The notes beneath the pieces were generated by a model. That model saw only the letters and a program-made list of their open reading frames with translations, had not been told where the DNA came from and did no database searches. 64,000 bases of DNA from a virus (Duplodnaviria > Caudoviricetes): IMG/VR virus record IMGVR_UViG_3300021958_000024; one strand, written 5' to 3'. The position numbers were made by a program, and so were the translations under genes. This document shows positions 16,813 through 46,343 of the stretch, one piece after another (position 1 is the first letter of the stretch; every line of letters starts with the position of its first letter).

Positions 16813-17214
16813 ATGCCATTAGAACGGGTATCAGCGGGTTTTAAGGATATTAGTGCAAGTTTTCAGTTTAACCCACTGAATAGGGACCTTATTGCAATCA
16901 AAAATGAGACCGCAATAGCCCGTTCTATTCGAAATATTGTAATGACTACCCCTGAAGAGAAACCATTTAATCCAAGATTTGGTTCTAGAGTATCAGATCT
17001 TTTATTTGAAAATATGGATTTTGCTACTGCAGCACTAATCAAGGATCAAATAAAAAATTCTATTGAAAACTATGAACCAAGGGTAAAACTTGATGAAGTT
17101 ATTGTCATTCCAGACTATGATAATAGCGAATTTAATATTACTATTAAGTATTTTATCATTGGTATAGATGCTTTACCACAACAACTATCGTTCGTATTAC
17201 AGCCTACTAGATAA
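16813..17214 (+). CDS. g25: Baseplate wedge subunit gp25
   Basis: EKPFNPRFGS...YEPRV gp25 motifs; position before g6; ATAAATA late promoter at 16784. Confidence 0.93.
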   Translation: MPLERVSAGFKDISASFQFNPLNRDLIAIKNETAIARSIRNIVMTTPEEKPFNPRFGSRVSDLLFENMDFATAALIKDQIKNSIENYEPRVKLDEVIVIPDYDNSEFNITIKYFIIGIDALPQQLSFVLQPTR

Positions 17215-19131
17215 ATGGCAATAGTAAACTTCACAAATTTAGATTTTGATCAGATAAAAGATAGTATAACGCAATATCTAAGATCAAACTCAAACTTTAC
17301 GGATTATGATTTTCAGGGATCTAATCTATCAACTATTATTGATGCTCTAGCATACAACAGTTACATATCAGCATATAATGCTAATATGATAACCAATGAA
17401 GTTTTTATTGATAGTTCTACATTAAGAGAGAACGTAGTATCTTTGGCAAAGCATATTGGATACTTACCAAGATCCAGAAACTGTTCCAAAGCTATTATAT
17501 CATTTATTGTCAATCTATCATCTGGTAATATATCACCAACTTACTTAACTTTAAAATCTGGCATTATCTGCACAACCCAAGTTGGATTCACTAAAACCAA
17601 CTATATTTTCTCCTTAAGAGATGATATTGTTGCTCCTGTTGTAAATGGGATTGCAGTTTTTAATAATGTTGAGATTCTAGAAGGAAGTCTAGTCTCACAA
17701 TCATTTACTGTTAATAGTATTCTTCCAAATCAGAGATATATTTTAGATAATGCAAATATTGATACTAATACTATTAGGGCAGTCGTAAGAAAAAGTGCCG
17801 AAAGTTCTGTTACTGAGGTTTTCAGTCTTTGTAAAGACTTTTGTGCTATTGGATCAGAATCTAGAGTATTTTTCCTACAAGAGATTGAAGACCAAAGATA
17901 TGAGATAATCTTTGGTGATGGAGTATTTGGTAGGAAACTTGAAGATGGTAATATTGTAGAACTCTCTTATATTGTTAGTGATGGTGGCGAAGAATCTAAT
18001 AATATTGAGACCTTTAAGTATGTTGGCAAGATTTATGATAATAATAACAGATTTGTAGATGCTGGCATTTCTCTAGTATCTTCTGATGGACCATCTCAAG
18101 GTGGTAGAAACATTGAATCCATTGATTCTATTAAAAAGTTTGCACCTAGATTATATTCTGCTCAAGGTAGAGCGGTCACTTCATCAGATTATGAAGCTAT
18201 AGTTACTCAGATTTATCCCGAAGCAGAATCAGTTTCTGTTTTTGGTGGTGAAGAGTTAGATCCACCACAATATGGTAAGGTTTTTATTACTATCAAACCA
18301 TATGAGGGAGATATCTTACCAATATCAGTTAAAAATAATATCAAAGATTCTTTAGGTAAATATGGTGTTGCTGGTATTAGACCAGAGATTATTGACCTTA
18401 AATACCTCTATGTTGAATATGATAGTAGTGTTTACTATGATATCAATAAAGTTGGCAGTGTAAATTCATTGAGATCAAACATTGCAGATTCTATTGAAAG
18501 ATATGCAGACTCTGTTGAGTTGAATAAGTATGGTGCTAGATTTAAATATAGTAAGTTCTTGAAGATTATTGATGATACTGATGCATCTATCACATCAAAC
18601 ATCACTAAAATTACTATAAGAAGAGATCTAAAAGCATCTATTAATGCTTTAGCTGAATATGAGATTTGTTATGGTAATAGTATACATGTTAATAACTGTG
18701 ATGGTTATAATATAAGGTCTTCTGGATTTAAGGTCTCTAACTACGTTGATACTGTCTATATTACCGATATTCCTAAAAGAGGGGGTATGGGTGAGATAAT
18801 CCTGTTTAAGTTGAATGGAGGCGTTCCTGTAGTGCTTAGAAGGAACTATGGGAAGGTGGATTATAAGAAGGGTGAGATTGTTCTATATCCAACTATTATT
18901 ACCTCTACAGAAAAAATCAAGTTCAATACCTCAGTTATTGAAATTTCTGGATCTCCATCTTCAAATGATGTTATTGGATTACAAGATCTATATCTTCAGT
19001 TAGACACTACAAATAGTATGTTAAATATGATTAGAGATTCAATATCTTCTGGGGAAGATACTTCAGGATCCTCGTTCATAACCTCATCAAGCTACACAAA
19101 CTCAACCAGCGGACAGTATATAAGAAACTAA
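17215..19131 (+). CDS. g6: Baseplate wedge subunit gp6
   Basis: LDFDQIK...FTDYDFQGS, RENVVSLAK, AQGRAVTSSDYE, PPQYGKVFI. Confidence 0.95.
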   Translation: MAIVNFTNLDFDQIKDSITQYLRSNSNFTDYDFQGSNLSTIIDALAYNSYISAYNANMITNEVFIDSSTLRENVVSLAKHIGYLPRSRNCSKAIISFIVNLSSGNISPTYLTLKSGIICTTQVGFTKTNYIFSLRDDIVAPVVNGIAVFNNVEILEGSLVSQSFTVNSILPNQRYILDNANIDTNTIRAVVRKSAESSVTEVFSLCKDFCAIGSESRVFFLQEIEDQRYEIIFGDGVFGRKLEDGNIVELSYIVSDGGEESNNIETFKYVGKIYDNNNRFVDAGISLVSSDGPSQGGRNIESIDSIKKFAPRLYSAQGRAVTSSDYEAIVTQIYPEAESVSVFGGEELDPPQYGKVFITIKPYEGDILPISVKNNIKDSLGKYGVAGIRPEIIDLKYLYVEYDSSVYYDINKVGSVNSLRSNIADSIERYADSVELNKYGARFKYSKFLKIIDDTDASITSNITKITIRRDLKASINALAEYEICYGNSIHVNNCDGYNIRSSGFKVSNYVDTVYITDIPKRGGMGEIILFKLNGGVPVVLRRNYGKVDYKKGEIVLYPTIITSTEKIKFNTSVIEISGSPSSNDVIGLQDLYLQLDTTNSMLNMIRDSISSGEDTSGSSFITSSSYTNSTSGQYIRN

Positions 19132-19135
19132 AAAT

Positions 19136-22100
19136 ATGGAAAAAGTATCTCTTAATAGTCTTGTAGAAAATCTTGTTCCCGAGTATGTTAGGGAAGAGTA
19201 TCCCCTGCTTGTAGAGTTTTTAAAAGAATACTATATCTCACAAGAAACTTCTGGGCAATCTCTAGACCTTATTCAAAATCTAGCAGAATATGTCAAGATT
19301 GATAACTTGACAAACCTAGTAGATTCTTGCAATCTAACTGCAAGTATTTCTTATTACGAAAAGGATATCTTTGTAGATACTACTAGAGGATTTCCATCTT
19401 CGCAAGGTCTTATTCAGATCAATGATGAGGTTATTTTTTATGATAGATCTGTAGAAGAGGAACCTATTGAGTTTGTTGGTAAGATTGATATTGGATTTAA
19501 TGAGATTACCAGTACTGAAGTTGAGGACACTACATCTACTGTTGGTTGGTATGTAAGAGTTTATAACTTAGATGAATCTAAATTTATTGGCGAAGGTCTT
19601 GTAACTGGCACCAATGATGGTAATAATATCAAAGTCAACTTTACACCAGTACCTTCTTCAGATATTGATGGATATGAGACTTCTGACCTATACATCTGTA
19701 AGATCACCAGATCCAAGTTTACGGGGTGTAGAAGGGGTTTCTCGGGGGTTACAGGACTAAAGGATAGTGTAACGTCGAATAAACTCATTTTCACGTCTAC
19801 GAAGGCATCTAAGCATAAGAATGGTGATGTTGTAACCAACTTAAATATCATCTTACTCAAAGAGTTTTTTAGAAAAATAAAAGTCCAGATTGCTCCTGGA
19901 TTTGAAAATGAGGAGTTTTATGACGTTATTAATGAGTCAACTTTTGTAAAAAATATTAAAGAGTTTTATAGATCCAAGGGTTCTGAATGCTCATTTGATT
20001 TATTATTCAAAGCATTATATGGAAAACCAGTAGATATTGTTATTCCAAGTAACTATCTGGTAGAACCTTCTAGTTCTAGATATTCCATCACAAAAAATCT
20101 TATTGTAGAACTTATTGAAGGTGATGCAAGCGAGTTAGAAAATAGAACATTATACCAAGATACCCAGTTTAATATTCCAAATACAAGGGGTATTATTACA
20201 AAACTAGAAAAACTGCAAAAAGATAATAAAGATTTTTATCGTTTATATATTGATAACTCTATTGAGGAAAACTACGATTCCACATATGGAAACTTTACCA
20301 TTCATCCTAAAACTAAAAATACTACACGTATAGAAAAAAATCAAACATTTGTTGATGTTGATTCAACCATTGGATTTCCTCTTAGTGGAACTTTAGTATT
20401 AAAAGATGACTTCAACCTAGAATATCGCGTAGAATATACTTCCAAAACATCTACACAGTTTTTGGGATGTACTGGATTAACAAGAGATTTTGAAGAGAAT
20501 AGTGATATTAATCTAGATGTATATTCGTATGTCAATGTTACGGGTGGTCAAGTTAAAGTACGTGTAACAGGTGTTCTTGATAATAGTATTGAATCTACTA
20601 TATTACCATCGGTAAAAAATCTAAGAAAAAATGATTATCTTCCAATAAAAACACTTGGTACTGAAATAAAAAATGATCCAAGATCTTCTTCTTGGATTTA
20701 TAACATTCCCAAAACTTATCAAGTAAAATCTATTGAGTTATTAGATAACACTGATTTTGCTTACAGAGTTTATTTTTATGAAAAGCATGATCTATCAGTT
20801 GGTCAAAACATTACTCTAACCCCAGTATCTGACATTTCTGGTTCCTATAATGGGGCTGTTGTTGAATGGAATAACCAGTTTTCTGTTATTGTAAGAGGTA
20901 GTAGAGTATTTTTAAATGAAAATATTAAATATGATTTAGAGAAAAAACTAAACAAATCAAACTTTGATGGAATAATCAACTATCCAGCTGATGTTCAGAA
21001 TACTTATTATGACAGAAAAACAGATGACATTTATGTAAACTCGCAATCTTTACCACTTTATAGACCATCTTTTGAAGTTGAAGAGTTAAATGTAAATAAA
21101 AGAATACGTGCATTTTCTGGCATATTTAAAGATCAAGACACTTTAGATATTGGTAAACATGGTTTTATAACTGGAGATGCTGTAGTATACAAACCCAGAA
21201 CTGTTTCATATATCCCAAGTTATACTCTTGATGCAAATGGTGTAAGAAGCTATAAGTTTATCAATAATGAAACTGGAGATTATGAGAATAATCCAACTTT
21301 GGTTCTAATAAGAGGTAAAAAATATACCTTTAGAAATGATATGAATCAACACCCCTTTAGGATTCAGATAGAATCCAATGGGACAGTTAGTGATCAATAC
21401 AATGATGGCATTAAAAATAATGATGTAAGTAATGGCGTATTAGTTTGGGAGGTTCAAGAAGATACTCCAGATGTTTTATATTATCAATGTTTGAACCATC
21501 AAGCAATGGGTGGTGTAATCAATATTATTGACGAAGATGAGCAAAAATCTTTAGATATTGATAAAGGAATATATTTTATTGAAAAAGTATCGCCAACTCA
21601 GATTAAACTTTATAGAAGTAGAACAAATATAGTTAAAGGTCAGTCAGTAAAATTTAGTGGCGTCGTTATCCAAGATACTATTGAATCGTATGATTATGTT
21701 TACAAAAATCTTGACAGTAGAAAGATAGAACCTCAGGATATCATCAGAAAAATAGTTCGTCACCCAGGACATGAAAATTCTAATGTATCAGCAAAGATTA
21801 CTGAATCAGGTACTATTGGTATTTGGAGAAATGGTATTGAACTATTAAACTATAAATCTAAAGATTTCATCTCTTATGGTCAAATTAAATCTCTAGACGT
21901 TCTTTCAAAAGGTTCTGGTTATGATGTAATCAATGTTCCTTATTTGCGAATTACTGATCCAAACGGTTCTGGATGTGTATCTAACCTTTCGGTAAAAGGT
22001 TATTTAAGTAGAATCGATATATTAGATAAGGGATTTGATTATATTGAAACTCCAGTGATAAAAATATCTGGGGGTAATGGAACTGGAGCAAAAGCAGAAG

Positions 22101-25100
22101 TAGAACTTGAAAAATATGTCCATTTTTCAACTTTTAATGCTTCTGAAGTAGATCTTGTAAATGATAGTATCGGTTTTTCTACTTATCACAAGTTTAAAGA
22201 TGGAGAATCCATTCAATATGAAACTTTGGGTCAAGTAGCTATTGCTGGTTTATCCACATCTTCATATTATTTTGTATCTCTTGTTGATAGTTACAATGTG
22301 AAGTTGCATAAATCCAAATCTGATGCTTTAGATAATAGAAATCCAATCAATCTGTATCAAATAGGAACTGGAAAGCACAATTTAAAGTCCACAAATAGAA
22401 AAAATAGAGTAAAAAGAGTAAATATTTCCCAAAATGGATATGGTTATGAGCAAAAATACAGATCATGTCCATCTTCTGGCATTAGTACATATAAAGATTT
22501 GATTGAAATCAAAGATCATGGTTATCAAAGTGGAGAAATAGTCACCTATAATCCAAAAATTGCTCCAGTTGCTGGTCTTTCATCTGGAACGGACTATTAT
22601 GTACTAAAAAATGATGATGATTCTTTCAGATTATGCGCTATTACAGGAATTTCAACACAAAAAGACATTTTTTATAAGCAGAAAAAGTATATTAACTTTG
22701 ATGGATTTATAGAGGGCGATCATACGTTCAAATATCAGGATATTGTAGTCACAATTGAGGGAAGATCTTCATTAAGTCAGGAAGATCTTAATGCTGATAC
22801 AAATGCTAGAATAAGACCCATTTTTAGTGGTGAAATTGATAGTGTTTTTATCGAAAATGGTGGTCAAAAGTACGGATCTCAAGTTTCAAACTTTGTTTCT
22901 CAACCAAATATTCAGATTTTACAGGGCAGAAATGCTAGATTAAAACCCATTATTAAAAATGGCGAGATTATTTCTGTAATAATCCAAGATCCAGGAAAAG
23001 ATTATTATTCCACACCAGATGTTTCTGTAATTGGTACTGGAGTTGGTGCAAACTTGATTCCAATCGTAAAAGATGGTTATATTTCTGATATTATAATCGA
23101 AAATCCTGGAATCGGATATCAATCTGAAGGTACTCAAGCACTTGTAGTCAACAGAGGAATCTCTGGTAGTATTTCTGCAAATATTCAGACTTGGAGAATA
23201 AATCTCGTTGAAAGATATGTTTCGACTGGACTGATTTCACCAGAAGATTCTTTCCTGTATGAAGGAAAAACAAAATCAAGAGGAATTCAATATGTTCATA
23301 CATATGCACCAAGAAAACTTAGAGAGATTTCTCTTGCTAGTAGATTCTTAAATGGTGTTGAAGTTTTTAATCCAGATTTAGAACTTATTAATGGAGTTGA
23401 ATCAGTTTCTTTAGCACATTCTCCAATTCTTGGATGGGCATATGATGGAAATCCAATCTATGGTCCATACGCTTATTCATCACAGACTGGTGGTAGAATA
23501 ATCCAGATGACTTCAGGATATGAATTAAGAACTGATTTAAACAAAGACAAAAATAGACCAAATCTAGTAGATTTTCCACCAGGATTTTTTATTGAAGATT
23601 ATACATTCACTGGAAATGGTACATTGGATAAACATAATGGAAGATATTGTGTTACTCCAGATTATCCAAATGGTGTTTATGCGTATTTCTGTACTGTAAA
23701 CACTGAGGTTGATTCAAATGGATTATTTAAATCATATAGAAGACCAGTTTTCCCATATGTTATTGGGAATGCATATATTTCTTCTCCTACAGAGTTCAAC
23801 TTTAAGTCAACATCAACTTTAGAATACTTTGATCTAAACACTTCTGATTTGACTAGAAATACTGCTCCATACAGCTTGCTGGCAGATACTATTAACTATC
23901 CATATTTAAAATATGATAAAGCATATAGAAATCAAAACGCAATCGTAAAATCTACAAAGTTTGGATCAGTAACTAGTGTTGGTATTGTTACTGGTGGTTA
24001 TAACTACAAAGTTGGAGATAGAGTTGTATTTGACGGACAAATTGATACATTTAAAGCAAAAGGTATGGTTAGCAAAGTAAAGGGGGTAGATGTTGAATCT
24101 ATCAGTTTACTTCACTCCGAATCGCAAAAATGCAATATTATAAAAACCAGTAAAGTATTCACTGCATTTACTGAAGACCCACATGGTTATACTCCTGGGG
24201 AGAGTGTAACATTAACATTCAATAATGAACTATTAACAACAACTGAGATAAATGTTAAGTTTAATATAATAACATTAAAGCAAAATCTTGATATTCCTTC
24301 AGTAACTGGAATTGTTACTCATATTTCTGTTGCAACTATTTTTGATTTGATTTATCCAAATGATGTTTATGAACTTAATAATGAAAAAATAAAGGTTTTA
24401 AGAGTAGAATCTAACAAGTCTAGATTATTAGTTCAAAGGGAATATGATGGTTCTATTGGATCAACTCACCAAGTATCTTCAGGATTTATTGAAGTTCCAA
24501 GAAAGTTCACCTTTAGTCCACAAAATTCTTTCATAACAACAAGTTTTACAAACTCTCTAGAAAATCCGTTATATTTTATCCCCTCAGAAAATGTTGGATT
24601 GAATACAGTAACAATCAATATAAGCAATCATCCTCTTATTACTGGTGATTTACTAGATTATTCAAATGAAGGTGGAACTTCTATAACCGTAGAAAATGAA
24701 AACGGATCATTCTTACTTTCTGATGTTGAACAGATTTATGCTGTAAAAATAAACAGCAATCTGATTGGTTTGACAACTGTATCTTCTGGAATCACCACAG
24801 ATCCACAACTATTGTTATTCACTAATGTTGGACTGGGTTCTGTTCACAGTCTAACTCCAAGATATTCAAATGTTTTAGAGTGTGATATTTCAGATGATAG
24901 AGTATTAGTTACTACAAGTACTCCACATGGTCTTTCTGTTGGCGATAGATTTGATCTTTATGTAGAATCGGGCATTTCTACAACTTATAAAGTAGAATAT
25001 AACAAACGAAACAGAGCTGTTATCATTGGAAGAAGAGATTTTGAGTCTTCTGATGTAAATACTTTAAAAAACTTCATTACAATAGAAAACCATAAGTATC

Positions 25101-28100
25101 AAAGTGGACAACAAGTAATATATCTATCATCTAATCCAGCAATAACTACTGGATTGGACCATGATAAAGTATATTATGTGTCTGCTATCACTTCTAATAG
25201 AATCAAGTTAGCAGAGCAGAAATATGATGCTCTGCTGGGCATAAACGCTGTAGATATTACAGCATCTCTTGCTGGATCAATATTACCAATAAATTCACCA
25301 CTAGAAGTTGTAAAATATGAAGATATTATTTTTGATCTTTCCGATTCTTCATTATCAATCGATAATGAGAGAGAAAAAGAGGCATTTGATTTTAGATTAT
25401 ATTGGGATCACATGTTGACCCATGAGTTCTATACAACTGCTAAACAACGTTCATTTGATCTGACATATAATGGTTCCATAGGTATTTCAAGTGATGCAAA
25501 AGCAACTCTAAGAAATAGTTCAAATCTACCAAAAGAGATTTATTATAATCTAGTTCCAAAGAGAAGATTTGGTAATAATACAGAAAATCTTGAACTTTAC
25601 ACTTATAAAAATAGATCAGATGATGGATATATTAATAACTCCATTAATGTTGTTGATAGTAAGTTTTCTAATACCTACAAAATCAACTCAAATACATCAA
25701 ATACATTTACAGCACCTATTTTTAATGACCCAGAAAGATATGAATATACTTCTGGTAGAGGAAACGTACTAAACTATTTTGTTAAATCTCCAGTTGTTGA
25801 AGGATCTATTGCTGAAATTGAGATTCAATCTAGAGGTGAAGGATATAAGAGTATCCCTAAAATAGATAAGATTGTTTCGGAAAATGGTAGTGGTGCCATT
25901 CTAAAGGTCGAAAGTAACAATATTGGTACACCATTAAATATCGAGTTTGACGATATTGGTTACGATTATTATTCTGACAATACTATTAGACCATCATCAA
26001 AAACTCCTACAATTATTGAGTTAGATTACTTGTCTTCTGTAAAGGAAGTTAAGGTTATTTCACCAGGTAAAAACTATTCTACTGCTCCAGATATCATCAT
26101 TATTGATGGATATACCAATAAGTTAGTGGAAGATTTGGAGTTTAAGTATAACATATTCACAAGAAAAGTCGATATTATTAAAAATACATATAACTTATCT
26201 GAATATTCACCAAAAATCCTCACTATAAACAACTCAAATGGCATTGGAATCAATACTATTACATTTAATGAGGATAATAAGCATGTAACTGTAGAACTTT
26301 CTCCATCATACAGTTTCTTACAAGACTTCCCATTTGAGATTGGTGATAAAGTATTGGTCGAAAATGTAAGTGTTGGTATTGCAACTACTGGTAAAGGTTA
26401 TAACTCAGAAAACTACAACTATACTACATTTACTATTATTGATAGAGATCCTGCTCTTGGTGGTATTGGAGCAACTGTTACATACAGTCTACAAAATCTT
26501 CTTGGAGAAGGAGAATCTCCTGGTAAGTTTAATGTTTTTAACTCAGTAGGAAGAATAGTTCCATTAAAATACTTACCAACTTTTGAGATTGAAACTCAAA
26601 AGAGTAAGTTCTTTAGCAATGAACCAGTTGTAGGAACCTCTGGTGCAAGAGGAAACATTCAGAGTATTGATTATGATAGAGACATTATTAAAGTTTATAC
26701 CCTGGATGATTTTAAGGTCGGAGATGTTCTTAGAGGACTAGTTTCTGGAAGAAGATCCAGAGTATTAAAAGTAGTCTCAGATGAGATAGATTTTCCAGTT
26801 ACTTCTGGATCCGTAGTTAGAAATGGATGGTCAACAAGAAAAGGTTTCTTAAATGATCCAGAACAAAGAATACACGATAGTGATTACTACCAATACTTCT
26901 CTTACTCTGTAAAATCTGAAGTTGACTATGAAACTTGGAATCCATATGTTTCAAATCTAGTCCATACTGTAGGATTTAAAAAGTTTAGTGATATTTTGGT
27001 TCCATCAGAACCAAACTCTTTTGTGGGAATAGAAACTATTCAATCATCTGGAGATATTAGTGGTATTGCTGACATCCATAGAGTTATTGACGTAGATTGC
27101 TATCAAGATTTTGATACTATTACAGAAACTACATCTATCATAAATGAGACTAGAAAATCTAAAGAGGTTATTCTAAGGTCTAGACTACTACAAGATTATA
27201 TTGAGTCTATTGGTAATAGAGTTTTAGAACTAGATGACATATCTTCAGAGTTTAATCAGGTTGTAAGATCTACAAGATATTCAACTATTGATGCATATGA
27301 AAGAGTCGTTGGATTTAGAAAATACTTTGTTATTGTTGAAAATATCGATAATCCATATGAAAGACAAGCAGGTGTAGTTCTACTACTCTCTGATGGTCTA
27401 AATGTATTTAATGTTGACTATGCAAAATTATTCCCACAAACAACTATTGGAGATTTTGATGCGGAGATTTCTGGTACTGAAGTTTTATTGAGATTCTTCC
27501 CAATCAGTTATAAAACGACAAACTACTTAGTCTTTGTAACTTCTTTAGAAATCGATGCTTCTACAGTTGGTGTTGGATCAATCTCAGAATCTATCCTTGG
27601 CGATGCTGTTCATATGTATTCTGAACAGATTCCAAGTATTGGTCCAGGTGTGTCTGAAGTCTTTAGATTATCTCTGAATGATACTACTAATAAGTTAATC
27701 ATTCACGTTGGTGCTGATAATGGATATGTGCAGACAGAAGAGTTGATTATTACTACTGATGGTACAGATCTATTCGTAAATGAATATGGATTTTTAAATA
27801 GTTCTGGTGGTGGTTCTGATAGTACTCCAGGTATTGCTACCTTTACATATTCTATAGATGGATCTGAAATCATTGTAACTGGTGCATTTGATTCACCAAA
27901 CTCAAATGAGTTCCAAGTAGATGCATCTATTACAGCATTCTCCTCGACAAATACTGGTGTAGGAACTGCTGCAGTAAATGGTGCTTTATTGGAGACTACA
28001 TACACTTCTTTCTCTGCATCACCAACACCAACCGCATCTACATTATCATCTTTTGGTGGTAGATATGATGCAACATATGTGATTGCTTCTGTACAAGATT

Positions 28101-31627: not shown

Positions 31628-31655
31628 ACCTCATAAATAGATAAAAAGTCTACCA

Positions 31656-33230: not shown

Positions 33231-33236
33231 AGAATT

Positions 33237-36200
33237 ATGCCATCAAAAACGAATCTAAACGTCTTTCCTTATTTTGATGACTTTGATGAGGACAAAAACT
33301 ATTATAAAGTTCTTTTTAAACCTGGATATCCCATTCAGGCTAGAGAGTTATCAAACGTACAATCGATACTGCAAAATCAGATCGAACAGTTTGGAAACCA
33401 CGTTTTTAAAGAAGGATCTGTTGTAATCCCAGGTAATATTAGTTTTACCAGGATTACTGGCGTTGAGGTTCAAAATACATTTAATGCTATTGATATTGAT
33501 CAATACATTAATAATGCTAAGATGTACGGATACGTTATTGTTGGCAGAGATAGTGGTCTAAGAGCTAAAGTTGTTAAGGTACTTAGAAAAATCGATTATC
33601 CAGATTTAAATAATACTCTGGTATATTTTCAGTATTTAAATACTGGAACCAATAATGAAACTGAGTTTCAACCAGGAGAATCTCTCTACGCAGAATCTGA
33701 GATTCTTCCTGTATTGAGGCGTGGTGTAACTTCTTCCACTCTCGTAAATGTAAAAACTCAAAGTACTGAAGACATTTTTGGTGATCGTGGTGTACAAAGT
33801 ACCATTGTAACTGCTTCAAGATCATCAAGCAATATTTCTGGACAATATCAATACGAAAATGTTAGTACTATTGATGATATTACTCTTAGAAGTGGTCAAG
33901 ATTTCTTATTAGTAAAAACTCCTATTATTGGATCAGCAGCTATTATTAGCGAAGGTGTATATTTTCTAAGAGGAAACTTTGTTAATGTTGATGAAGAGTT
34001 ACTAGTTGTAGATAGGTTTAGTTTCTTAGCAAATGCAAAGATTGGACTAAGTATTACTGAGCAGATTATAACTTCAGATAATGATTCAACTCTATTTGAT
34101 AACTCTAGAGGATTTTCAAACTATGCTGCTCCTGGAGCAGATAGATTAAAAATCACAGCAAGATTAGCATCTTTAGATTTAGATGATGATCAAACAGATA
34201 ACTTTATTGAACTTACAAGAGTAGAAGACGGCAATATTGTATTCTTAAATAGAAATCCTGAGTACAATGAGCTTGGCAATGAACTCGCCAGAAGAACTTA
34301 CGATGGGTCTGGAGATTATTATATTACACCATTTACTCTAACCGTAGAGGAATCTCTAAATGACTTAGAGGGTAGCAGAGGTGTATTTAAAGAAGGAGAA
34401 GTAACTAGAGAACAAAATACACCCAAGGAAAGTATGGGAGTATTTAAACTATCTCCAGGAAAAGCATATGTTAAAGGATATGAGATTGAAAGGTTAGCTA
34501 GTACTTTAATCGATTTTGAAAAACCTAGAGATACTAAAACATTATTAAATCAGTCCATCCAATATGCCCCTGGAACAGGTCTAACTCTTAATAGGTTACA
34601 TGGAACACCAAAGATTGGTATTTCAACCTATCACGTTTCTTTGAGAGATTCTAGACTGGGATCAAATAATTTAGAAGCATCTGGCAAAGAGATTGGATTG
34701 AGCAGAGTATATGATTTTGCTCTAGAATCTGGTGCATACAACACAAGCAATCTAGATCTCAATGAGTGGGATCTAAATGCATATGATTTAGATTTCTATA
34801 CAGAGATTACATTAAACCAACCAGTAACAGAAACTGTTCCATCAAAAATTGATGGCAAATATACTGGAGCATTTTCTTTCTTAAGGTTTGGTGCATCAAA
34901 TGCAGGTGTGGTTACTGCATATAGTAGTTCTGGAAGATATTCCATTGGAGAAAAAATCACTTTTAGTAATGGAGAAACTAGAGTAATCACAAATATTAGA
35001 TCATATGGTATTGATGATACCAAATCAGTTTACGGAAATGTCGGATTATCTACATTTACTGGTGATCTAAAGCAATCCAAAAAAGTTTCTTTGGGAAGTG
35101 TTGCTATTCAAGGCGAATCTGCTGGAGTATCTACAGTAACATCACCATCAACCGTATTTACTAATATTTGTGAAGATGGAGATTTAGTATCTTATACTAT
35201 CGGTGAAAATACTGTACCAAATTTTGCAAAGATTCAATCAGTATCGACTAATAGTATTGTTATTGAACCAGTTCAATCGGTTTCTGGTATTTGTATAGGA
35301 ACTCTTCCAGTATCAACAACTACTGGATTAGATTTTGCTATTTTAACTACAGAAAGACAAGTTGGTAATAACGCATTATATACTCCGTTCCCCAAGCAAA
35401 ATATTGAATCTGTAGACCTTAGTGAGTCTAGAATTTCTATTAGAAGAGAGTATTCTGTTACTATTGCAGGTAATGGTTTTAACATTTCAGCATCTACATT
35501 ATCTGCAAATGAATCTTTCCAACCATATGATGAAGAAAGATATTCTTTGGTAACTCTTGATGGAACTATTATTCCATTAGAAAGTGGAAACTTTGCATTC
35601 TCAAATGGTGGTAGAGAAGTTACATTAACTAATCTCACTACTAATGGTCAAGCAAGATTTATTGCTTCACTGTACAAATCAACAGTTAAGAGTAGAGCAA
35701 AAGTTAAAAAGATTGAAGTTGCTACATTATCAAAATCATCTCTTGAGCAATCTGGTGTAAATATCGCTGGTGTTGGCGCAACAACTTTAAATGATGGTTT
35801 AGTATTTGGAAACTATCCATATGGCACAAGAGTTCAAGATGATAGAATCTGTTTAAATCATCCAGAAGTCATTAGATTGTATGGTGTTTTCGAATCAAGA
35901 ACTACAGAAGATCCGATTTTACCGAAGTTAACAATAACTAATATTCTAACTTCTGAAAAGTCCCCAACAACTGCAAATAACATTAAAGTTGGTGAGCGTT
36001 TAATCGGAAGCACTTCAGAATGTGTTTTAGTATGCACTAATATTATAAATCCTTCAACTATTGAAGTTGTATCGGTAAATAAAAAAACTCCTTCCACTTC
36101 TGAAGCAATAAAAGGCAAAGAAACTGGCATAACGGCAGAAGTAGTAAACTATATCGATACGCAAAGCGTTAATATCACTGATAGATATTTACTTGAGTCT

Positions 36201-39200
36201 GGAGAGACTTCTCAAGCATATACATATTCATTCTTAAAGAGAGTTTCTAGTTCAGCATCTCCAAAAAGAAGGATTAAAGTCGTTTATGACAGGGTATATA
36301 TTCCATCTGACGATGCTGGAGATGTCGTATGTGTAAACTCGTATTCCAGTATTCCCAGAAATACAATTTCATCGGCACCAGGTCAGACATCAAAAACTGA
36401 TATTTTAGATTTAAGACCTATTCCAGATCCTTTCCTCGTTTATGAGGGTCAAAGATCTCCATTTGAGTTCTTTGGAAAGAACTACAGTGAAACTAATAAC
36501 TCATTTAGGGACATTTTAGTTGCGGATGAAGATATTATCTTAAACTACACATTCTATCTCGGTAGAGTAGATAGAATATTCTTGGATATTAATGAGCAGA
36601 TTATTGTCAAGAAAGGTGTTGCATCAGAATCTCTAGATCCTCCAGAATCTCCAGCAAATGCTCTTGAGATTGCTAGAGTTACTTTTGCACCATATGCAAA
36701 AAATGCAAGAAAAGCAGCAGATATTCAACTTTTAACACATAAAAGATATAGAATGTCTGATATCTCTAAGTTAGAGAATAGAATTAAAAATCTTGAGTAT
36801 TATACGACATTAAATCTACTAGAGCAATCAACTTCAGCGTTATCTGTTCCAGATTCTAATGGACTGAATAGATTTAAGTCTGGTTTCTTTGTTGATGATT
36901 TCTCAACCAGAAATAATCAATATGTTGTTGAGGGTCAGATTAAGAACTCAAATGATAAAGTAAATAGAGAACTACGTCCAGCTTGTTATACTACAGAGCT
37001 TGATTTAACTTTAGCAAATAATATTAACTATAACACTAACAATGCTCCATCTGTTCATCCAGTAAAGGGCATTTCACGAAGTGTGTATGATGATGTTAAG
37101 TTTACTCAAATATCAAATATTATTGGAAATAATATCCAAATAACTGGTGGTGGTGGAGCTCGTAATGAAAATACAGGTAAGGGACTACTAACTTTAGCAT
37201 ATAATGAGGAGATTAGGATCAGACAATCTTTTTCCACAAGAGTAGTAAATGTTACTCCGTATCTTGTAACAAACTATTATGGTCAGATTGATTTAAACCC
37301 ATCTTCCGATGTTTGGAGCGAAGAGACTATTCTAGAACCACTAATCATTACTGGTATTGAAGGTAGAGTCATTGAAGAAAGTCCTAGTTTTACTGCTCAA
37401 GAGTTTGCATCTCAGGATGGATTTGATCCTGTAAGTTGGGGATCTTGGAGAAACAACTGGACTGGATCTTCTCAAGCAGTTATTGGTAGAGGTTCAGTTA
37501 GTAGTTCTTCAACATCGCAGAGTGGAAATACAGTAACTGTTGCCACAACAACAACTAGTGGTAATGTTGTACAAACTACTAATACTGGTACTGCAACTCA
37601 GCAAGGTACAACTACTAGGATAACTAATCCTATTGAAGATAAAAATCTAGGAAATAGAGTTGTATCAGCTTCTAGTGCTGCTTATTTGAGATCAAGAAAT
37701 GTTGAATTCATCGCTAAGAAGATGAAACCAAGCACAAGATTATACGCTTTCTTTGATGATCAGGATGTTACTGCACTTTGTACGCCAAAACTATTAGAAA
37801 TAGAAATGGTCGATGGATCATTTACTATTGGTGAAGATGTTATATTCTATGATGAAAATAACTTTGTGATAGCGGGATATCGTTGTGCAGCACCAAATCA
37901 TCAATATGGCAACATTAATGATCCAAATGCTCAAACTTTCTATGATAGAAGTCCTTATGATCAGAGTTTATTACCAACTGTTTATACAGAGTCTTCAAAT
38001 ATTTTAAATGTAGATACAACTGCTTCTGGTGATTATTCTTCTGGTTATGGTGGAAATGTTTTAATAGGTGCTAGAGCGGAAGGTGTTACGAGTGGAGCAG
38101 TTGCTACGATTTCAAATAAGAGATTATTTACAGATCAAGTTGGCGTTGTTATTGGATCATTATTTGTACCAAATCCAAACGATGATACTAATCAAAGATT
38201 TACTACTGGTGCTATTTCGTTCAAAGTTTCAAACGACCAATCTAATGATATTATTCTTGGCGTAGAGACTACAGAAGCTACTGGACAGTTCTTCTCTTCT
38301 GGATTTATTACTCAAACACAAGAAACTACAATCCAAGTAAGAAATACTCTGATTGAATCTGCTACTATTACTAGAGAAAGAGCGATTGTTTCTACATCTA
38401 CGGCATTTGTACCAACTAATACTACCACAAGTAGTTTTTCATTCACAGTATCTCCACCAGCACCGCCAAATAGACATGATCCACTAGCACAGTCATTCTT
38501 TATCCCAAATGCTGCTGGTGTATTTGTGACTCACATGGATCTTTATTTCCAGGCAAAGTCTGAAGATCTTCCAGTATATGTTGAACTGAGATCAATGGAA
38601 CTTGGACTTCCAACTACAGAAGTTTATCCATTAAGTAGAGTTGAGCTGTTACCAAGTCAGGTTAATATTTCTGATGATGCTGCTGTACCAACAAGAGTTA
38701 ATTTCCAAGGACCAGTTTACTTAGAAGGTAATAAAGAGCATTGTATTGTATTATTATCTGATGTTACTGATTATTATGTTTGGATTTCTAGACTAGGAGA
38801 AACTACATTTGGTGTTAATGGTGAAGAAATTGCTATTACTACCCAGAATGAACTAGGATCTCTATTTAAATCTCAGAATGGATCAACTTGGAGTCCAAGT
38901 CAATATGAAGATCTTAAGTTTACACTATTTAATGCAAGATTTGTAGAACAGGGTAGTGTAACTCTTGTTAATAGTGATGTTTCTCAAGTAAATAATCTCT
39001 ATAAAGATCCACTCAAAACATATTCTAAAACACAAAGAGTTTCTCTTGGTGCGACTATAACTGATACTAACTTAAGGATTGGAAATACCATATATCAAGA
39101 AGATTCTAATGCAAGTGGTGTTTATATTGGAAATGCTGGTATTGCAACTGGAAATCTTTCTTTAGCAAATGCTGGCATTGGATATACTCCTTTTGAGTTT

Positions 39201-40958
39201 GGAGCACCTGCATTTACTTTTGAAGATGTTCCTCTAGTTTCATTAACAGGTGATGGTAAGAATGCTACTGCTGATATTACAATCGATGGTGGTGTTGCTA
39301 TTGCTGCAACTATCGTAAATGGTGGTTCTGGATATGTTATTGGCGAAGAATTGACAGCATCTCAACTAGGAATCTCTTCTGTTGGAAGAAATCTTGTATT
39401 GTCAGTAACTGATATTTTTGGCATAAATCAAATCATTATGGACGAAATCCAAGGTGATTTTAATGTTTCACCTACTAAAGCACTATACTTCTACAGTAAT
39501 GATCCTGTTGTTGGATTCGGAACAACTACTATTAATGCATTAGGTAATGGTGGAAATGATACTGATGTAACAGTTGAATCTATAGAAACTGTTCATGATG
39601 GATTACATATTGAAGTTATCCATAAAAACCACGGAATGCATTCTCTACAAAATAGAGTGTTGATTTCTGGTGTAGAATCTGATGTTTCTCCTGCAACACT
39701 AGTAGGATCACTTTCAAGAACATCTACTGAGGATATTGAGTTAGATGCAGATGATATTTCAGTATTTGAAGCCTTTGAAAACATTCCAGTTTCTGCTCAG
39801 AATCCTGGTTATATTTCTATTGGAAATGAAATCATTTCATATACTGGAGTTACTGGAAGTAGTTTAACGGGTATTGGAAGAGACATTGATACATCATCAA
39901 TAGCAATTCCTCGCACTGTTAACTATAATCCAAAAGTATATAAGTATGAATATAATGGTATTTCTCTAAGAAGAATCAATAAGGAACACTTCTTACAAGA
40001 TGCTACGGTAGAAAACCCAATTGGACTAGACAAATATAACATTAAGATAGATACTTCAACTGATGGAGTAGATAGATCTACTGGAGTTACATATCCAAAA
40101 CTATTCTTAGCTGAAACTAAGAGTGGTGGTGGACCTGGAGTCTATGGTTCTAAGAACATTGCCTATGAAATGATTCATCCTATTATAAATACATTAGTTC
40201 TTCCAGATGCAACACTAACTGCTACGGTTAGAACAACAACTGGTACTAGTATTGATGGAAATGAAGAATCATTCCTTGATGCTGGAACCGTTCCATTGAC
40301 TATTAATGAAGATAACTATTTTGAATCTCCTAGAGTTATTGCTTCCAGAATCAATGAACTTGCTTTTGCAGATCAACTACCTGGAAACAAATCTCTAGAA
40401 ATTACTTTAAACTTATCAACAGATCAACCAGTTATTAGTCCTATTATTGACCTGGATCGTCTTGGTGCTGTATTTGTATCAAATAGAGTAAATAATCCAA
40501 TCAGTGATTATATTAATGATTCCAGAACATCCAGTAGTACAGAAGATCCAACCGCATTTACATATCAAACAAAACCAATCCAACTAGAGTTCCCAGCAAC
40601 TTCTATAAAAGTTCTTGTTGAAGCATATATAAATCAATATACTGATGTTAGAGCATTCTTTGCTGTTATGAAGTCTGCAGAAAAAGAACCAATCTATTAT
40701 CCATTCCCTGGATTTAGAAATAGATTGGCATCGGGTGAAGTTATTGATATTACCAAAAATGATGGAACTCCAGATAAACAATATAGTAGAAATAATGCTC
40801 TAGGATATGAGCAAGGTGGCATCAGTTATGTTGATTTAGAGTTTAATATTGATAATCTTGAGCCATTTAACTTCTTCTCAGTGAAGTTGTTAGGCACCTC
40901 AACAAATCAGGCATTCCCACCAAGATTTAGAGATCTAAGAGTTATTGGATTAGCATAG
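33237..40958 (+). CDS. Large virion structural protein (VrlC/DUF4815-like), 2573 aa
   Basis: PYFDDFD...LFKPGYPIQARELS N-terminus, RYRMSDI, FKSGFFVDDF, DPLAQSF, FKSQNGSTW; usual cyanomyovirus position after g8. Confidence 0.85.
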   Translation: MPSKTNLNVFPYFDDFDEDKNYYKVLFKPGYPIQARELSNVQSILQNQIEQFGNHVFKEGSVVIPGNISFTRITGVEVQNTFNAIDIDQYINNAKMYGYVIVGRDSGLRAKVVKVLRKIDYPDLNNTLVYFQYLNTGTNNETEFQPGESLYAESEILPVLRRGVTSSTLVNVKTQSTEDIFGDRGVQSTIVTASRSSSNISGQYQYENVSTIDDITLRSGQDFLLVKTPIIGSAAIISEGVYFLRGNFVNVDEELLVVDRFSFLANAKIGLSITEQIITSDNDSTLFDNSRGFSNYAAPGADRLKITARLASLDLDDDQTDNFIELTRVEDGNIVFLNRNPEYNELGNELARRTYDGSGDYYITPFTLTVEESLNDLEGSRGVFKEGEVTREQNTPKESMGVFKLSPGKAYVKGYEIERLASTLIDFEKPRDTKTLLNQSIQYAPGTGLTLNRLHGTPKIGISTYHVSLRDSRLGSNNLEASGKEIGLSRVYDFALESGAYNTSNLDLNEWDLNAYDLDFYTEITLNQPVTETVPSKIDGKYTGAFSFLRFGASNAGVVTAYSSSGRYSIGEKITFSNGETRVITNIRSYGIDDTKSVYGNVGLSTFTGDLKQSKKVSLGSVAIQGESAGVSTVTSPSTVFTNICEDGDLVSYTIGENTVPNFAKIQSVSTNSIVIEPVQSVSGICIGTLPVSTTTGLDFAILTTERQVGNNALYTPFPKQNIESVDLSESRISIRREYSVTIAGNGFNISASTLSANESFQPYDEERYSLVTLDGTIIPLESGNFAFSNGGREVTLTNLTTNGQARFIASLYKSTVKSRAKVKKIEVATLSKSSLEQSGVNIAGVGATTLNDGLVFGNYPYGTRVQDDRICLNHPEVIRLYGVFESRTTEDPILPKLTITNILTSEKSPTTANNIKVGERLIGSTSECVLVCTNIINPSTIEVVSVNKKTPSTSEAIKGKETGITAEVVNYIDTQSVNITDRYLLESGETSQAYTYSFLKRVSSSASPKRRIKVVYDRVYIPSDDAGDVVCVNSYSSIPRNTISSAPGQTSKTDILDLRPIPDPFLVYEGQRSPFEFFGKNYSETNNSFRDILVADEDIILNYTFYLGRVDRIFLDINEQIIVKKGVASESLDPPESPANALEIARVTFAPYAKNARKAADIQLLTHKRYRMSDISKLENRIKNLEYYTTLNLLEQSTSALSVPDSNGLNRFKSGFFVDDFSTRNNQYVVEGQIKNSNDKVNRELRPACYTTELDLTLANNINYNTNNAPSVHPVKGISRSVYDDVKFTQISNIIGNNIQITGGGGARNENTGKGLLTLAYNEEIRIRQSFSTRVVNVTPYLVTNYYGQIDLNPSSDVWSEETILEPLIITGIEGRVIEESPSFTAQEFASQDGFDPVSWGSWRNNWTGSSQAVIGRGSVSSSSTSQSGNTVTVATTTTSGNVVQTTNTGTATQQGTTTRITNPIEDKNLGNRVVSASSAAYLRSRNVEFIAKKMKPSTRLYAFFDDQDVTALCTPKLLEIEMVDGSFTIGEDVIFYDENNFVIAGYRCAAPNHQYGNINDPNAQTFYDRSPYDQSLLPTVYTESSNILNVDTTASGDYSSGYGGNVLIGARAEGVTSGAVATISNKRLFTDQVGVVIGSLFVPNPNDDTNQRFTTGAISFKVSNDQSNDIILGVETTEATGQFFSSGFITQTQETTIQVRNTLIESATITRERAIVSTSTAFVPTNTTTSSFSFTVSPPAPPNRHDPLAQSFFIPNAAGVFVTHMDLYFQAKSEDLPVYVELRSMELGLPTTEVYPLSRVELLPSQVNISDDAAVPTRVNFQGPVYLEGNKEHCIVLLSDVTDYYVWISRLGETTFGVNGEEIAITTQNELGSLFKSQNGSTWSPSQYEDLKFTLFNARFVEQGSVTLVNSDVSQVNNLYKDPLKTYSKTQRVSLGATITDTNLRIGNTIYQEDSNASGVYIGNAGIATGNLSLANAGIGYTPFEFGAPAFTFEDVPLVSLTGDGKNATADITIDGGVAIAATIVNGGSGYVIGEELTASQLGISSVGRNLVLSVTDIFGINQIIMDEIQGDFNVSPTKALYFYSNDPVVGFGTTTINALGNGGNDTDVTVESIETVHDGLHIEVIHKNHGMHSLQNRVLISGVESDVSPATLVGSLSRTSTEDIELDADDISVFEAFENIPVSAQNPGYISIGNEIISYTGVTGSSLTGIGRDIDTSSIAIPRTVNYNPKVYKYEYNGISLRRINKEHFLQDATVENPIGLDKYNIKIDTSTDGVDRSTGVTYPKLFLAETKSGGGPGVYGSKNIAYEMIHPIINTLVLPDATLTATVRTTTGTSIDGNEESFLDAGTVPLTINEDNYFESPRVIASRINELAFADQLPGNKSLEITLNLSTDQPVISPIIDLDRLGAVFVSNRVNNPISDYINDSRTSSSTEDPTAFTYQTKPIQLEFPATSIKVLVEAYINQYTDVRAFFAVMKSAEKEPIYYPFPGFRNRLASGEVIDITKNDGTPDKQYSRNNALGYEQGGISYVDLEFNIDNLEPFNFFSVKLLGTSTNQAFPPRFRDLRVIGLA

Positions 40959-40959
40959 T

Positions 40960-41187
40960 ATGGACAGATTAAAAGTAAAAGATCAATCCCATTTATATAG
41001 AGATAGTAATAGTAATGCTATTATTAATACTGATAAAGGTCAGTATGATCTCTATATAAAAAGGAGAGAGAAACGGAAAAGTGAAAACAGTAAAATTGAG
41101 CACATCGAAAATGATTTGAATAGGTTAAAATCGGACATTAATGAAATAAAATCATTATTAATGGAGATTAAGAATGGATCCCTCTGA
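40960..41187 (+). CDS. Small coiled-coil hypothetical protein
   Basis: LYRDSNSNAIIN...heptad C-terminus. Confidence 0.75.
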   Translation: MDRLKVKDQSHLYRDSNSNAIINTDKGQYDLYIKRREKRKSENSKIEHIENDLNRLKSDINEIKSLLMEIKNGSL

Positions 41188-41338
41188 CATAACTCTAGAT
41201 TCTGTTGCAAAAAACTTTGAGTATGAAAAAAATGCTAGAAACATAGATAGTATAAGTGATGTTCAGACTTTGCGAAATATTGCTAAGTCAATGCACAAAT
41301 TATACTTAAAACAGCAAGAAGTCATTTCTAAACTATAA
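41174..41338 (+). CDS. Small helical protein (54 aa), weakly NblA-like
   Basis: GGAGA RBS; MDPSDITLDSVAKNFEYEK...LYLKQQEVISKL; TAATG overlap with g13. Confidence 0.65.
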   Translation: MDPSDITLDSVAKNFEYEKNARNIDSISDVQTLRNIAKSMHKLYLKQQEVISKL

Positions 41339-42180: not shown

Positions 42181-42184
42181 TATT

Positions 42185-43633: not shown

Positions 43634-43644
43634 GGGACTAAAAA

Positions 43645-44646: not shown

Positions 44647-44654
44647 GGTAGGGT

Positions 44655-45113
44655 ATGAAAAAAGCATTTGATGGTTTAGACGATGCATTTAATATTAAAA
44701 ATGATACTGATGAAAATAAAAATGAAGAAAAAATAAAAGAAGTTGAAGTTTTACCAGATAATGATCAAAAAATAGTAAAACAAAGTAAAGAAGAACATAT
44801 TGATAAAGACTATGATTATACTAGAGGAAATCTTTACTCTATTATAGAAAAGGGTCAAGAAGCTATTAATGGTGTCTTAGAGTTAGCACAAGAAACTGAC
44901 TCTCCAAGAGCATATGAAGTTCTTGGGCAACTTATTAAAAACGTGTCTGATACCACAGATAAGTTAATGGATCTTCAAAAGAAGATTAAGGATATGGAAG
45001 AAGAAAAGCAAAAAGGTCCCACAAATGTTACTAATAATGCAATGTTTTTTGGATCTACAGCGGATCTATCCAAGTTTTTAAAACAGCAGCAAAATAATAC
45101 TGATGATAAATAA
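44655..45113 (+). CDS. g16: Terminase small subunit gp16
   Basis: DYDYTRGNL, SPRAYEV, FFGSTADL. Confidence 0.92.
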   Translation: MKKAFDGLDDAFNIKNDTDENKNEEKIKEVEVLPDNDQKIVKQSKEEHIDKDYDYTRGNLYSIIEKGQEAINGVLELAQETDSPRAYEVLGQLIKNVSDTTDKLMDLQKKIKDMEEEKQKGPTNVTNNAMFFGSTADLSKFLKQQQNNTDDK

Positions 45114-45136
45114 TACGTGGAAGATTAGTAATAAAA

Positions 45137-46006
45137 ATGTCATTCAATCATCCTATCAACAAAACAGCACATTCTTCTGCAAAAAAGCAGAACAAAATTG
45201 CTGCTATGAAAAAATCTCCAAATGAAAACGAAAGGAAGGTTGCTGACAAAAAGTTACGTCCATCCGCAAAAGTTGATGTTCCAAGCTTTCTGAAAAACGA
45301 AGTTTCATTAGTCGATAAAATCGTAGAAGAAATCATTCAAGAGAAAAAAAATAAAGGACTCTGGTCAAATATTCATGCTAAACGTAAGCGTGGAGAATCG
45401 CCAGCGAAACCTGGGGATAAGAATTATCCAAAGACTTTGAATGTTGAAGAAAAAGAAAACAAAGTAACTATAGAAGATGCTGATGGCAACACATTTTTAG
45501 AAGTTGTCGATTTAATCACTCCAGATCCACTAGTTTCAGAAGGGATTGTAAGAATCCCAGCTAAAACGGGGAACATTGTTTTAGTGGGTCTTACTTGGAG
45601 AGGAAGATATCATTCAATAAAGATGTTTTTCCCACAAACAAAGTTCCCCACAAGAACTGAAGTTCAAAATGAGATAGAAAAGGTCTACCCAGGCGCACGA
45701 GTATACAGTTTTAACGTATCCGAGTATGAGCCAGGAAAACCAATGGTCCAAGTCTCTGAAGGAGCATCTTGGACAAAAAAAGAAGGAAAGAATGAATCTG
45801 GAGGACTTAATGAAAAGGGACGAAGGTCTTATGAAAAGGAAAATCCAGGATCTGACCTTAAAGCACCTTCAAAGGAGGTTGGAAATCCCAGACGGGCATC
45901 CTTCTGTAGAAGAATGAAAGGAATGAAAACAAAACTGACCTCAAAGAAAACTGCTAACGATCCCGATAGCAGAATCAATAAGTCCCTGAGAGCATGGAAC
46001 TGCTGA
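45137..46006 (+). CDS. Modular hypothetical protein with basic C-terminal domain (WTKKEGK...KSLRAWNC)
   Basis: 289-aa ORF after ATAAATA at 45106. Confidence 0.75.
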   Translation: MSFNHPINKTAHSSAKKQNKIAAMKKSPNENERKVADKKLRPSAKVDVPSFLKNEVSLVDKIVEEIIQEKKNKGLWSNIHAKRKRGESPAKPGDKNYPKTLNVEEKENKVTIEDADGNTFLEVVDLITPDPLVSEGIVRIPAKTGNIVLVGLTWRGRYHSIKMFFPQTKFPTRTEVQNEIEKVYPGARVYSFNVSEYEPGKPMVQVSEGASWTKKEGKNESGGLNEKGRRSYEKENPGSDLKAPSKEVGNPRRASFCRRMKGMKTKLTSKKTANDPDSRINKSLRAWNC

Positions 46007-46007
46007 T

Positions 46008-46343
46008 ATGAAATCATTCAAACAGTTTTTATCTGAAAGTATCACTATTAATGGAGATTTCAACGGAACTCTTAACGTTGGAGATTCTCATCAAGAACAG
46101 ACTAAAGAAGAAAATAGTTTCTATGCTGATCTTGTTTGGGAAGGAAAAATATATAGAATACAGTTCATGACAAATGAAAATATTCTTCCAACTCCAGCAA
46201 ACTTAGCAAACCATTTGCAAGATGAGTATCCAGGGGGAATAGTTCATAATGTTTATCCGATTACAGAAAAAAATAAAAACTATAGAGTTAAATCTGTACA
46301 GAGGTATCAACCAGAAGCATTGACATGGAAAACTGAATCTTGA
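46008..46343 (+). CDS. Hypothetical protein with capsid-targeting-like N-terminus
   Basis: Begins MKSFKQFLSE. Confidence 0.7.
   Translation: MKSFKQFLSESITINGDFNGTLNVGDSHQEQTKEENSFYADLVWEGKIYRIQFMTNENILPTPANLANHLQDEYPGGIVHNVYPITEKNKNYRVKSVQRYQPEALTWKTES

Follow-up and report, generated by a model that had tools for sequence, protein, structure and literature searches.

Closest described systems

Chloroviruses (PBCV-1 R.CviAII/M.CviAII) and phage P1 carry a short-site nuclease together with its cognate methylase, and the chlorovirus nuclease is thought to degrade host DNA. Avoidance of restriction sites (short palindromes) is said to have been described in phages and in bacteria bearing restriction-modification (R-M) systems, in the reports of Sharp (1986), Gelfand & Koonin (1997) and Rocha et al. 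(2001). A hexamer containing AATT is cut by EcoRI (Type IIP, G^AATTC; 1ERI, 1CKQ, 1QPS, 2OXV), and the bare tetramer (^AATT) is cut by the bacterial Type IIP enzymes TspEI, Tsp509I, MluCI and Sse9I, of which MluCI serves as an AATT-specific reagent (PMC8919816). Here we describe a 64-kb stretch of phage genome (IMG/VR record IMGVR_UViG_3300021958_000024; hereafter the window, 35.4% G+C, to which all window statistics refer) that is strongly depleted in AATT and encodes a putative EcoRI-family nuclease (4446–4985) overlapping a Dam-family methylase (4982–5821). Judged by synteny and by similarity to annotated phages, the window is from a T4-like cyanomyovirus (Kyanoviridae). We consider it likely that the phage's own nuclease/methylase R-M cassette drives the AATT depletion.

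The predicted phage nuclease shares with EcoRI the PD-(D/E)XK fold and the motifs PDGG...E-A/G-K-x-Q and GNAIERxxKN, and it may form a homodimer. It differs in being shorter (179 aa versus 277 aa), in being virus-encoded, and in its pairing with a D12/Dam-family methylase, not one of the M.EcoRI family (PF13651 absent). With TspEI, Tsp509I, MluCI and Sse9I it would have the recognition site in common; those enzymes are bacterial, whereas the phage family is viral or metagenomic apart from one contig of a Paceibacterota metagenome-assembled genome (MAG). The chloroviruses and P1 share the virus-borne pairing; here the hosts are cyanobacterial, the nuclease belongs to the EcoRI family, and self-protection would also involve the purging of sites, which is complete in methylase-free relatives. 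As in classical palindrome avoidance, a short palindrome has been depleted by silent substitutions, but the selector is apparently the phage's own, the depletion follows a phage gene, and AATT is totally absent over more than 100 kb in some genomes. The methylase has the D12 fold and motifs of the GATC enzymes EcoDam, T4 Dam and DpnM, and forms a separate subfamily with a longer hairpin and Gln in place of an Arg.

In the literature searched, neither avoidance of AATT nor this R-M pair is described for cyanophages. The only prior trace was in GenBank, where gp11 of phage S-CREM2 bears the product name 'restriction endonuclease EcoRI', and the S-CREM2 paper does not discuss this gene. The system is set apart by its combination of a minimal EcoRI-family enzyme that probably acts on bare AATT, a partner of the Dam family whose target has apparently changed, and selection that would be exerted by the phage's own enzyme.

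Strong and specific depletion of AATT

Under a maximal-order Markov model, the window contains 153 AATT sites versus 540 expected (observed/expected (O/E) 0.28, z = −23.3), which is the largest deviation (z) among all 256 tetramers. Tetramers of the same composition are at expectation (TTAA O/E 1.00, ATAT 1.06), and AATT is the sole A/T-only tetramer below 0.79. The original prediction, made from the letters of the DNA, had proposed strong and specific AATT avoidance within 16813–46343, based on hand counts of one AATT in 19141–20340 and of none, with 11 TTAA, in 33241–34440. All of these counts were exact on recount, and the avoidance itself is borne out. The span contains structural genes (gp6-like, gp7 at 19136–31627, gp8, VrlC at 33237–40958, and gp13–gp16) and has 58 AATT versus 286 expected (O/E 0.20), with TTAA at 233 versus 234. 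The depletion is, however, not confined to this region. It reaches every gene of 2155–64000 save one, and thus the whole window apart from two open reading frames (ORFs; 157–2154 and 46352–47674), with 1–9 AATT versus 4–32 TTAA per 2 kb across 2155–64000 (neither span is assigned a strand).

Synonymous-codon shuffles of 38 ORFs gave 583.7 ± 15.7 AATT, versus 134 observed (z = −28.6), and even the lowest of 200 shuffles had 543, so the low count is not reproduced when codons are preserved. The codon-shuffle O/E of individual genes within 16813–46343 was 0.00–0.42. With the two exceptional genes left out, the three codon frames had O/E values of 0.16, 0.13 and 0.20 and each of the ten NAATTN contexts one of 0.00–0.31, and the 10.5 kb outside the listed ORFs had 18 AATT versus 97 TTAA. 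Given depletion in all frames, in all NAATTN contexts and outside ORFs, the target is the DNA tetramer, as opposed to any hexamer, codon or codon pair, in agreement with the earlier view that the pressure is on the 4-mer. The genomic signature is that of classical restriction-site avoidance, with a palindrome depleted, via silent changes, beyond both Markov and codon-preserving nulls.

Other tetramers also deviated. The window is strongly short of CCGG (3 versus 26 expected), GGCC (2 versus 20) and AGCT (65 versus 139), and GGCT/AGCC are likewise scarce (8 versus 70 and 14 versus 40, respectively). GGCC, GGCT/AGCC and AGCT jointly correspond to RGCY, while CCGG falls outside it. Unlike that of AATT, the CCGG and RGCY depletions are common to most cyanomyoviruses sampled (L001–L009 compared). 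GATC, described in the original prediction as abundant, is so relative to base composition (284 versus 207) and also by codon shuffling (O/E 1.03); the Markov model, in contrast, puts it mildly below expectation (0.74).

Lineage specificity and loss by silent changes

Nine cultured cyanomyoviruses that lack the nuclease gene (P-SSM2, S-CAM9, RB11-B, S-RIM32, S-RIM8, S-SCSM1, S-SM2, S-SKS1 and Syn1) were not clearly depleted (AATT O/E 0.76–0.98). A further 80 IMG/VR loci were chosen by similarity of the terminase gene (gp17; 47678–49324 in the window), where the closest cultured relatives are ~80% identical. AATT O/E was 0.65–1.09 in 77 of these, and depletion was found only in the two closest, L010 (97% aa identity, O/E 0.24) and L011 (93%, 0.46). 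Every terminase-selected locus with ≤91% identity lay at 0.65–1.09, including the sister lineages at 89–91%, which are not depleted.

Across nine orthologous core genes, the mean AATT count of the outgroups is 88. The corresponding count is 18 for the window, 22 for L010 and 50 for L011, while TTAA in the same genes is unchanged (outgroups 75; 72, 81 and 99, respectively). At 23 positions at least half of the outgroups have AATT; the window retains 2 of these sites and has lost 21, nearly all silently and spread over all three frames. The replacements seen were AAT-T to AAC-T, xAA-TTx to xAG-TTx, and xxA-ATT to xxA-ATC or xxA-ATA. The synonymous-substitution mechanism that had been suggested from codon choices can be seen directly in the alignments.

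A minimal EcoRI-family nuclease

The gene at 4446–4985 (+ strand; phrog_2400 at 5e-89) encodes a 179-aa protein that, by its motifs, profile and predicted fold, appears to be an EcoRI-family (PD-(D/E)XK) mini-nuclease with probable AATT specificity. It contains PDGG (75–78), E91-G-K93 and G99-NAIER-104, followed by WF-KN. In the PDB, a profile built from 62 family members matched chains of EcoRI and of no other protein (E = 2.7e-11). The alignment covered EcoRI residues 26–116 (PDGG...EAKHQGK) and 138–175 (AGNAIERSHKN...) and skipped 117–137, and no sequence match extended past residue 175. D76, E91 and K93, at least 90% conserved in the 62 members, are in register with EcoRI PDGG...EAKHQGK, in which D91, E111 and K113 are the catalytic residues in the published EcoRI-DNA structures. 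G99, N100 and R104 are invariant in the family, and G99-NAIER-104 with xxKN aligns to EcoRI AGNAIERSHKN. Within this GNAIER segment of EcoRI, N141, E144 and R145 contact the inner AATT of GAATTC in those structures. The outer G:C is read by other EcoRI segments, which have no evident counterpart in the phage nuclease, as would fit a site of 4 bp and not of 6 bp. The motifs were intact in all 24 viral homologues examined.

The AlphaFold model obtained with the 62-sequence alignment had a predicted local distance difference test score (pLDDT) of 89.3 and a predicted template modelling score (pTM) of 0.82; the alignment was needed for a good model, as the single sequence reached a pLDDT of 36. 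Foldseek searches of the PDB with this model placed EcoRI at all of ranks 1–5 (prob 1.00, E 0.9–2.6e-5, template modelling score by query 0.55–0.61), and the next match had an E value of 0.012. A symmetric homodimer through the GNAIER helix was also predicted, with an interaction prediction score from aligned errors (ipSAE) of 0.73 versus 0.00 for the best control, although this may echo the known EcoRI dimers. Three runs agreed in 100% of contacts with partner pLDDT ≥80, and 20 of the 30 proteins solved as pairs attained the 0.73 mark, as did 1 of the 23 solved as single chains. The nuclease most likely cuts bare AATT as a homodimer, and a 4-bp AATT specificity can reasonably be inferred from motif homology combined with the indirect evidence of the genome signature, AATT alone being purged where genomes have the gene.

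The family comprises 239 clusters at 50% identity in metagenomes and viral metagenomes. When motifs from an 11-sequence alignment were scanned against 185,579 prokaryotic genomes, 72 matches came up, none of them a relative of the nuclease, and the sole cellular match to the family is the Paceibacterota MAG contig. All other members are on viral or metagenomic contigs, and the names looked up (two batches) were all 'hypothetical protein'.

The paired Dam-family methylase

The second gene (4982–5821, + strand) encodes a 279-aa putative N6-adenine DNA methyltransferase of the Dam family (D12 class), matching PF02086 (1e-31, 111 bits; cut-off 22) and TIGR00571 (138.5 bits; cut-off 114.85), whose likely role is protection of AATT. 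The nuclease stop codon overlaps the methylase start codon (ATGA at 4982–4985), which probably couples the two genes in translation. Phage methylases related to it at 60–80% identity were found in 64 records, namely those of S-RIM2 and S-BM1 in which the nuclease also occurs, and all other phage Dams are ≤33% identical to it. The methylase lies directly downstream of the nuclease in 18 of 21 IMG/VR loci and in S-BM1, and the pair recurs in distant lineages, the Paceibacterota contig included.

The best PDB match of the methylase is DpnM (E = 3e-24), relative to which its DNA-reading hairpin is two residues longer and Gln occupies the position where the DpnM Arg and R124 of EcoDam align. This Arg reads the G of GATC in EcoDam (R124, from its structure), DpnM and T4 Dam. 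The Gln is invariant in 22 paired methylases, and recurs in those of the distant lineages and of S-CREM2. This replacement speaks against GATC specificity without establishing AATT as the target; the methylase most likely methylates AATT.

The arrangement of the pair varied. In S-RIM2 R1_1999, a 1,056-nt hypothetical gene (L090:20644–21699) lies between nuclease and methylase, which overlap directly in S-BM1 and in the window. In L111 (1911–3254), the two apparently form one 473-aa frame; a sequencing error is possible, and if the fusion is natural it would be consistent with functional coupling. The S-CREM2 nuclease homologue gp11 (within L202:7054–10313) adjoins a virion protein annotated as 'CRISPR-associated endonuclease Cas9/Csn1', and the S-CREM2 methylase, two genes from gp11, is 32% identical to that of the window and keeps the FNGIWQ hairpin. 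The genomes G005 and G006 also have second D12 methylases, which are unrelated (~22% identity).

Depletion follows the phage nuclease gene

Among 50,697 phage records, the nuclease was found in 65, those of S-RIM2 isolates, S-BM1 and S-CREM2 only. S-RIM2 and S-BM1 belong to another genus than the window and have 41% G+C, and their AATT O/E values are 0.27 and 0.25, respectively. S-CREM2 has 30 AATT in 50 kb versus 85 TTAA and 158 ATAT, and with an O/E of 0.58 AATT is its third-lowest tetramer. Three further phages isolated, like S-RIM2 and S-BM1, on Synechococcus WH7803 (S-RIM8, S-SKS1 and S-SCSM1) are without the gene and not depleted.

All 21 IMG/VR loci with a nuclease homologue (44–100% identity) had AATT O/E of 0.00–0.65. 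All 24 nuclease-bearing loci tallied were depleted, with a median of 0.36, and the median was 0.87 in the 165 loci where no copy was visible (Mann-Whitney p = 1e-13, which overstates the evidence as the loci are related). Unrelated viral contigs with a 29–42% identical nuclease plus methylase had O/E of 0.40–0.81. The nuclease-linked depletion spans unrelated viral lineages of 33–48% G+C, and loci with both genes range overall from 0.10 to 0.81. Loci selected by the helicase gene, which were intended as matched negatives and are mostly small fragments, gave a less clean contrast (0.28–1.06).

AATT-free genomes with the nuclease

Three IMG/VR records (G002, G003 and G004) have an intact nuclease and not a single AATT. 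A 2OG-Fe(II) oxygenase gene occupies the position of the methylase in all three, and no D12, N6_N4, EcoRI-type or PF05869 methylase was found in these records, which are 41–63% complete. G002 has 0 AATT versus 339 expected in 111,864 bp, and G003 is the same phage; G004, with 87% nucleotide identity to G002, has 0 versus 233 expected in 73,883 bp. Over 65 kb, 8,278 substitutions separate G002 from G004 with no AATT site observed, whereas the same substitution load placed randomly created 166 ± 13 sites in a simulation that ignores coding constraints. Zero AATT despite this divergence indicates that the purge is actively maintained. An unrelated 8.2-kb phage contig (L224), with a solitary nuclease ~29% identical to that of the window, likewise has 0 AATT versus 35 expected, with 40 TTAA. 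The pattern of no sites with a solitary nuclease and partial depletion with nuclease plus methylase is as expected of an AATT-cutting nuclease and a methylase that shields the site. G002 also lacks any CCGG in 112 kb (154 expected).

Two AATT-rich islands

Two genes of the window escape the depletion. The first (157–2154, + strand) encodes a 665-aa protein, has 27% G+C and contains 29 AATT versus 33.5 in codon shuffles (O/E 0.87). It had no Pfam or PHROG match, and its homologues (76–100% identity) are metagenomic only, on many contigs, and all 'hypothetical'. The second (46352–47674, + strand), just upstream of the terminase, encodes a virion structural protein (phrog_1645 at 3e-168) and has 13 AATT versus 17.0 (O/E 0.76). 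It has no aligned counterpart in the close relative L010 (93% identical), in which ~700 nt occupy the place, indicating a swapped cassette. Both genes look like recent imports that still hold their AATT sites, and a tetramer count can thus flag recently acquired genes in these genomes.

Origin of the depletion

The original prediction had named an AATT-specific nuclease, the phage's own at 4446–4985 or the host's, as the long-term selector. The proposal of such a nuclease is supported, and the evidence favours the phage's own, given that WH7803 phages without the gene are undepleted and that the motif scan found no prokaryotic relative. In the mechanism that we propose, the early region of the phage harbours a two-gene R-M cassette, nuclease first and methylase second. 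The nuclease, which keeps the catalytic PD...E-x-K and GNAIER, would cut AATT as a homodimer, and the Dam-family methylase would mark the adenine of AATT. Where methylation is incomplete or behind replication, each genomic AATT would represent a small risk of self-cleavage, and selection would have removed ~80% of the sites through synonymous changes, with the probable new imports at 157–2154 and 46352–47674 still at normal AATT density. The nuclease may serve to degrade the DNA of the host and/or of co-infecting phages, or may act as a selfish addiction element.

Several observations weigh against this reading. At the level of the proteins, the nuclease matched no Pfam family at E ≤0.01 (EcoRI PF02963 included), had no match in NCBIfam, and gave none in a single-sequence phmmer search of the PDB; on these comparisons it is a remote, truncated relative of EcoRI rather than a member of the curated EcoRI family. 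Site loss despite methylase protection is an assumption, made by analogy with palindrome avoidance in R-M-bearing bacteria. The AATT-free records G002–G004 are 41–63% complete, and the window covers 64 kb of its phage. At the level of the genomes, G005, a complete 194-kb genome with an intact pair, is only mildly depleted (O/E 0.69), and two distant paired contigs are at 0.79–0.81. Conversely, O/E is 0.28–0.49 in eight contig fragments in which no nuclease is visible, and L147 (0.41) has a paired-type methylase and no nuclease in its 18.9-kb record. In L147 (10034–13334), the helicase is followed after ~1.2 kb by the methylase (hairpin FNGIWQINQNTNGRYGTP), and the interval contains no nuclease; this lineage may have lost the nuclease and be regaining sites, or the nuclease may lie off-contig. 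The depleted records without a visible nuclease were 6–35% complete where checked, and their nuclease may be off-contig as well.

In G005 (L212–L221), the AATT density doubles over 170–190 kb, near the cassette (~162–163 kb) and an N6_N4 methylase gene (~170 kb).

Selection by a host enzyme (TspEI/MluCI-like Type II, in natural Synechococcus hosts), with the phage methylase as protection and the nuclease as a passenger, is the strongest alternative, though we regard it as unlikely. Signatures of this kind are classically attributed to host-driven avoidance, and no nuclease is seen in some of the depleted contig fragments. The window and most cyanomyoviruses are also short of CCGG and RGCY, for which no search for a responsible phage nuclease was made. 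However, phages isolated on the same strain, WH7803, differ in depletion according to whether they have the gene (their isolation hosts may differ from their natural hosts), and the depletion tracks the phage gene through unrelated viral lineages of 33–48% G+C. The genomes with zero AATT carry an intact nuclease and no detected methylase, an outcome not predicted for a passenger nuclease, and the prokaryotic genomes scanned gave no relative of the enzyme.

Somewhat less probable still is that the main pressure comes from the same nuclease family in co-infecting phages, the own cassette being kept chiefly for its methylase. The abundance of the family in viral metagenomes and the moderate depletion of several fragments without a visible nuclease would fit this scenario, but none of the complete cultured genomes lacking the gene is clearly depleted, and sites are zero precisely in the genomes that have the nuclease and no methylase. 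The co-infection and own-enzyme models overlap and are only partly separable by sequence. A cause other than a nuclease (context-dependent mutation bias, a DNA-structural constraint on AATT, which is a narrow-minor-groove element, or codon-pair selection) is a generic alternative for oligomer biases with nothing specific in its favour and is very improbable, as the depletion is alike in the three codon frames and outside the listed ORFs, is not reproduced by codon-preserving shuffles, spares TTAA, ATAT, the sister lineages with 89–91% identical terminases and two genes of the same genome, and concerns a tetramer without cytosine to which methyl-cytosine deamination is inapplicable. Mutational, structural and translational causes were thus rejected on frame independence and lineage specificity.

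How T4-like cyanophages, which do not have the modified cytosine of T4, recognize their own DNA during degradation of the host chromosome is a puzzle, and a phage-encoded 4-bp cutter combined with methylation and purging would be a testable answer. Where no methylase is present, the nuclease would place a constraint on each substitution and each imported gene, with 112 kb free of AATT. We see about an even chance that minimal EcoRI-like AATT nucleases are a marine phage weapon against host chromosomes and rival phages, with immunity provided either by a methylase or by an AATT-free genome. In that case the phage sequence itself would encode self/non-self discrimination, foreign genes would face an absolute barrier, and the AATT density of a gene would date its residence in the genome. 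Testing is feasible given that S-RIM2 and S-BM1 have been cultured on Synechococcus WH7803, and the locus yields a compact candidate AATT enzyme (~180 aa) and a methylase of the Dam family whose target has apparently changed.

Genomic context

The genes of the window include those for a helicase, small early genes, gp6/gp7/gp8, VrlC, gp13–gp17, gp18–gp23, UvsY/UvsW and gp46/47, the structural gene names being taken from synteny with the annotation of S-SM2, S-SCSM1 and S-RIM8. No tRNA genes and no host-like genes pointing to a host were found within the 64 kb. The major capsid gene gp23 (56597–58033) has 49% G+C in this 35% G+C window and is the strongest compositional outlier among the ORFs.

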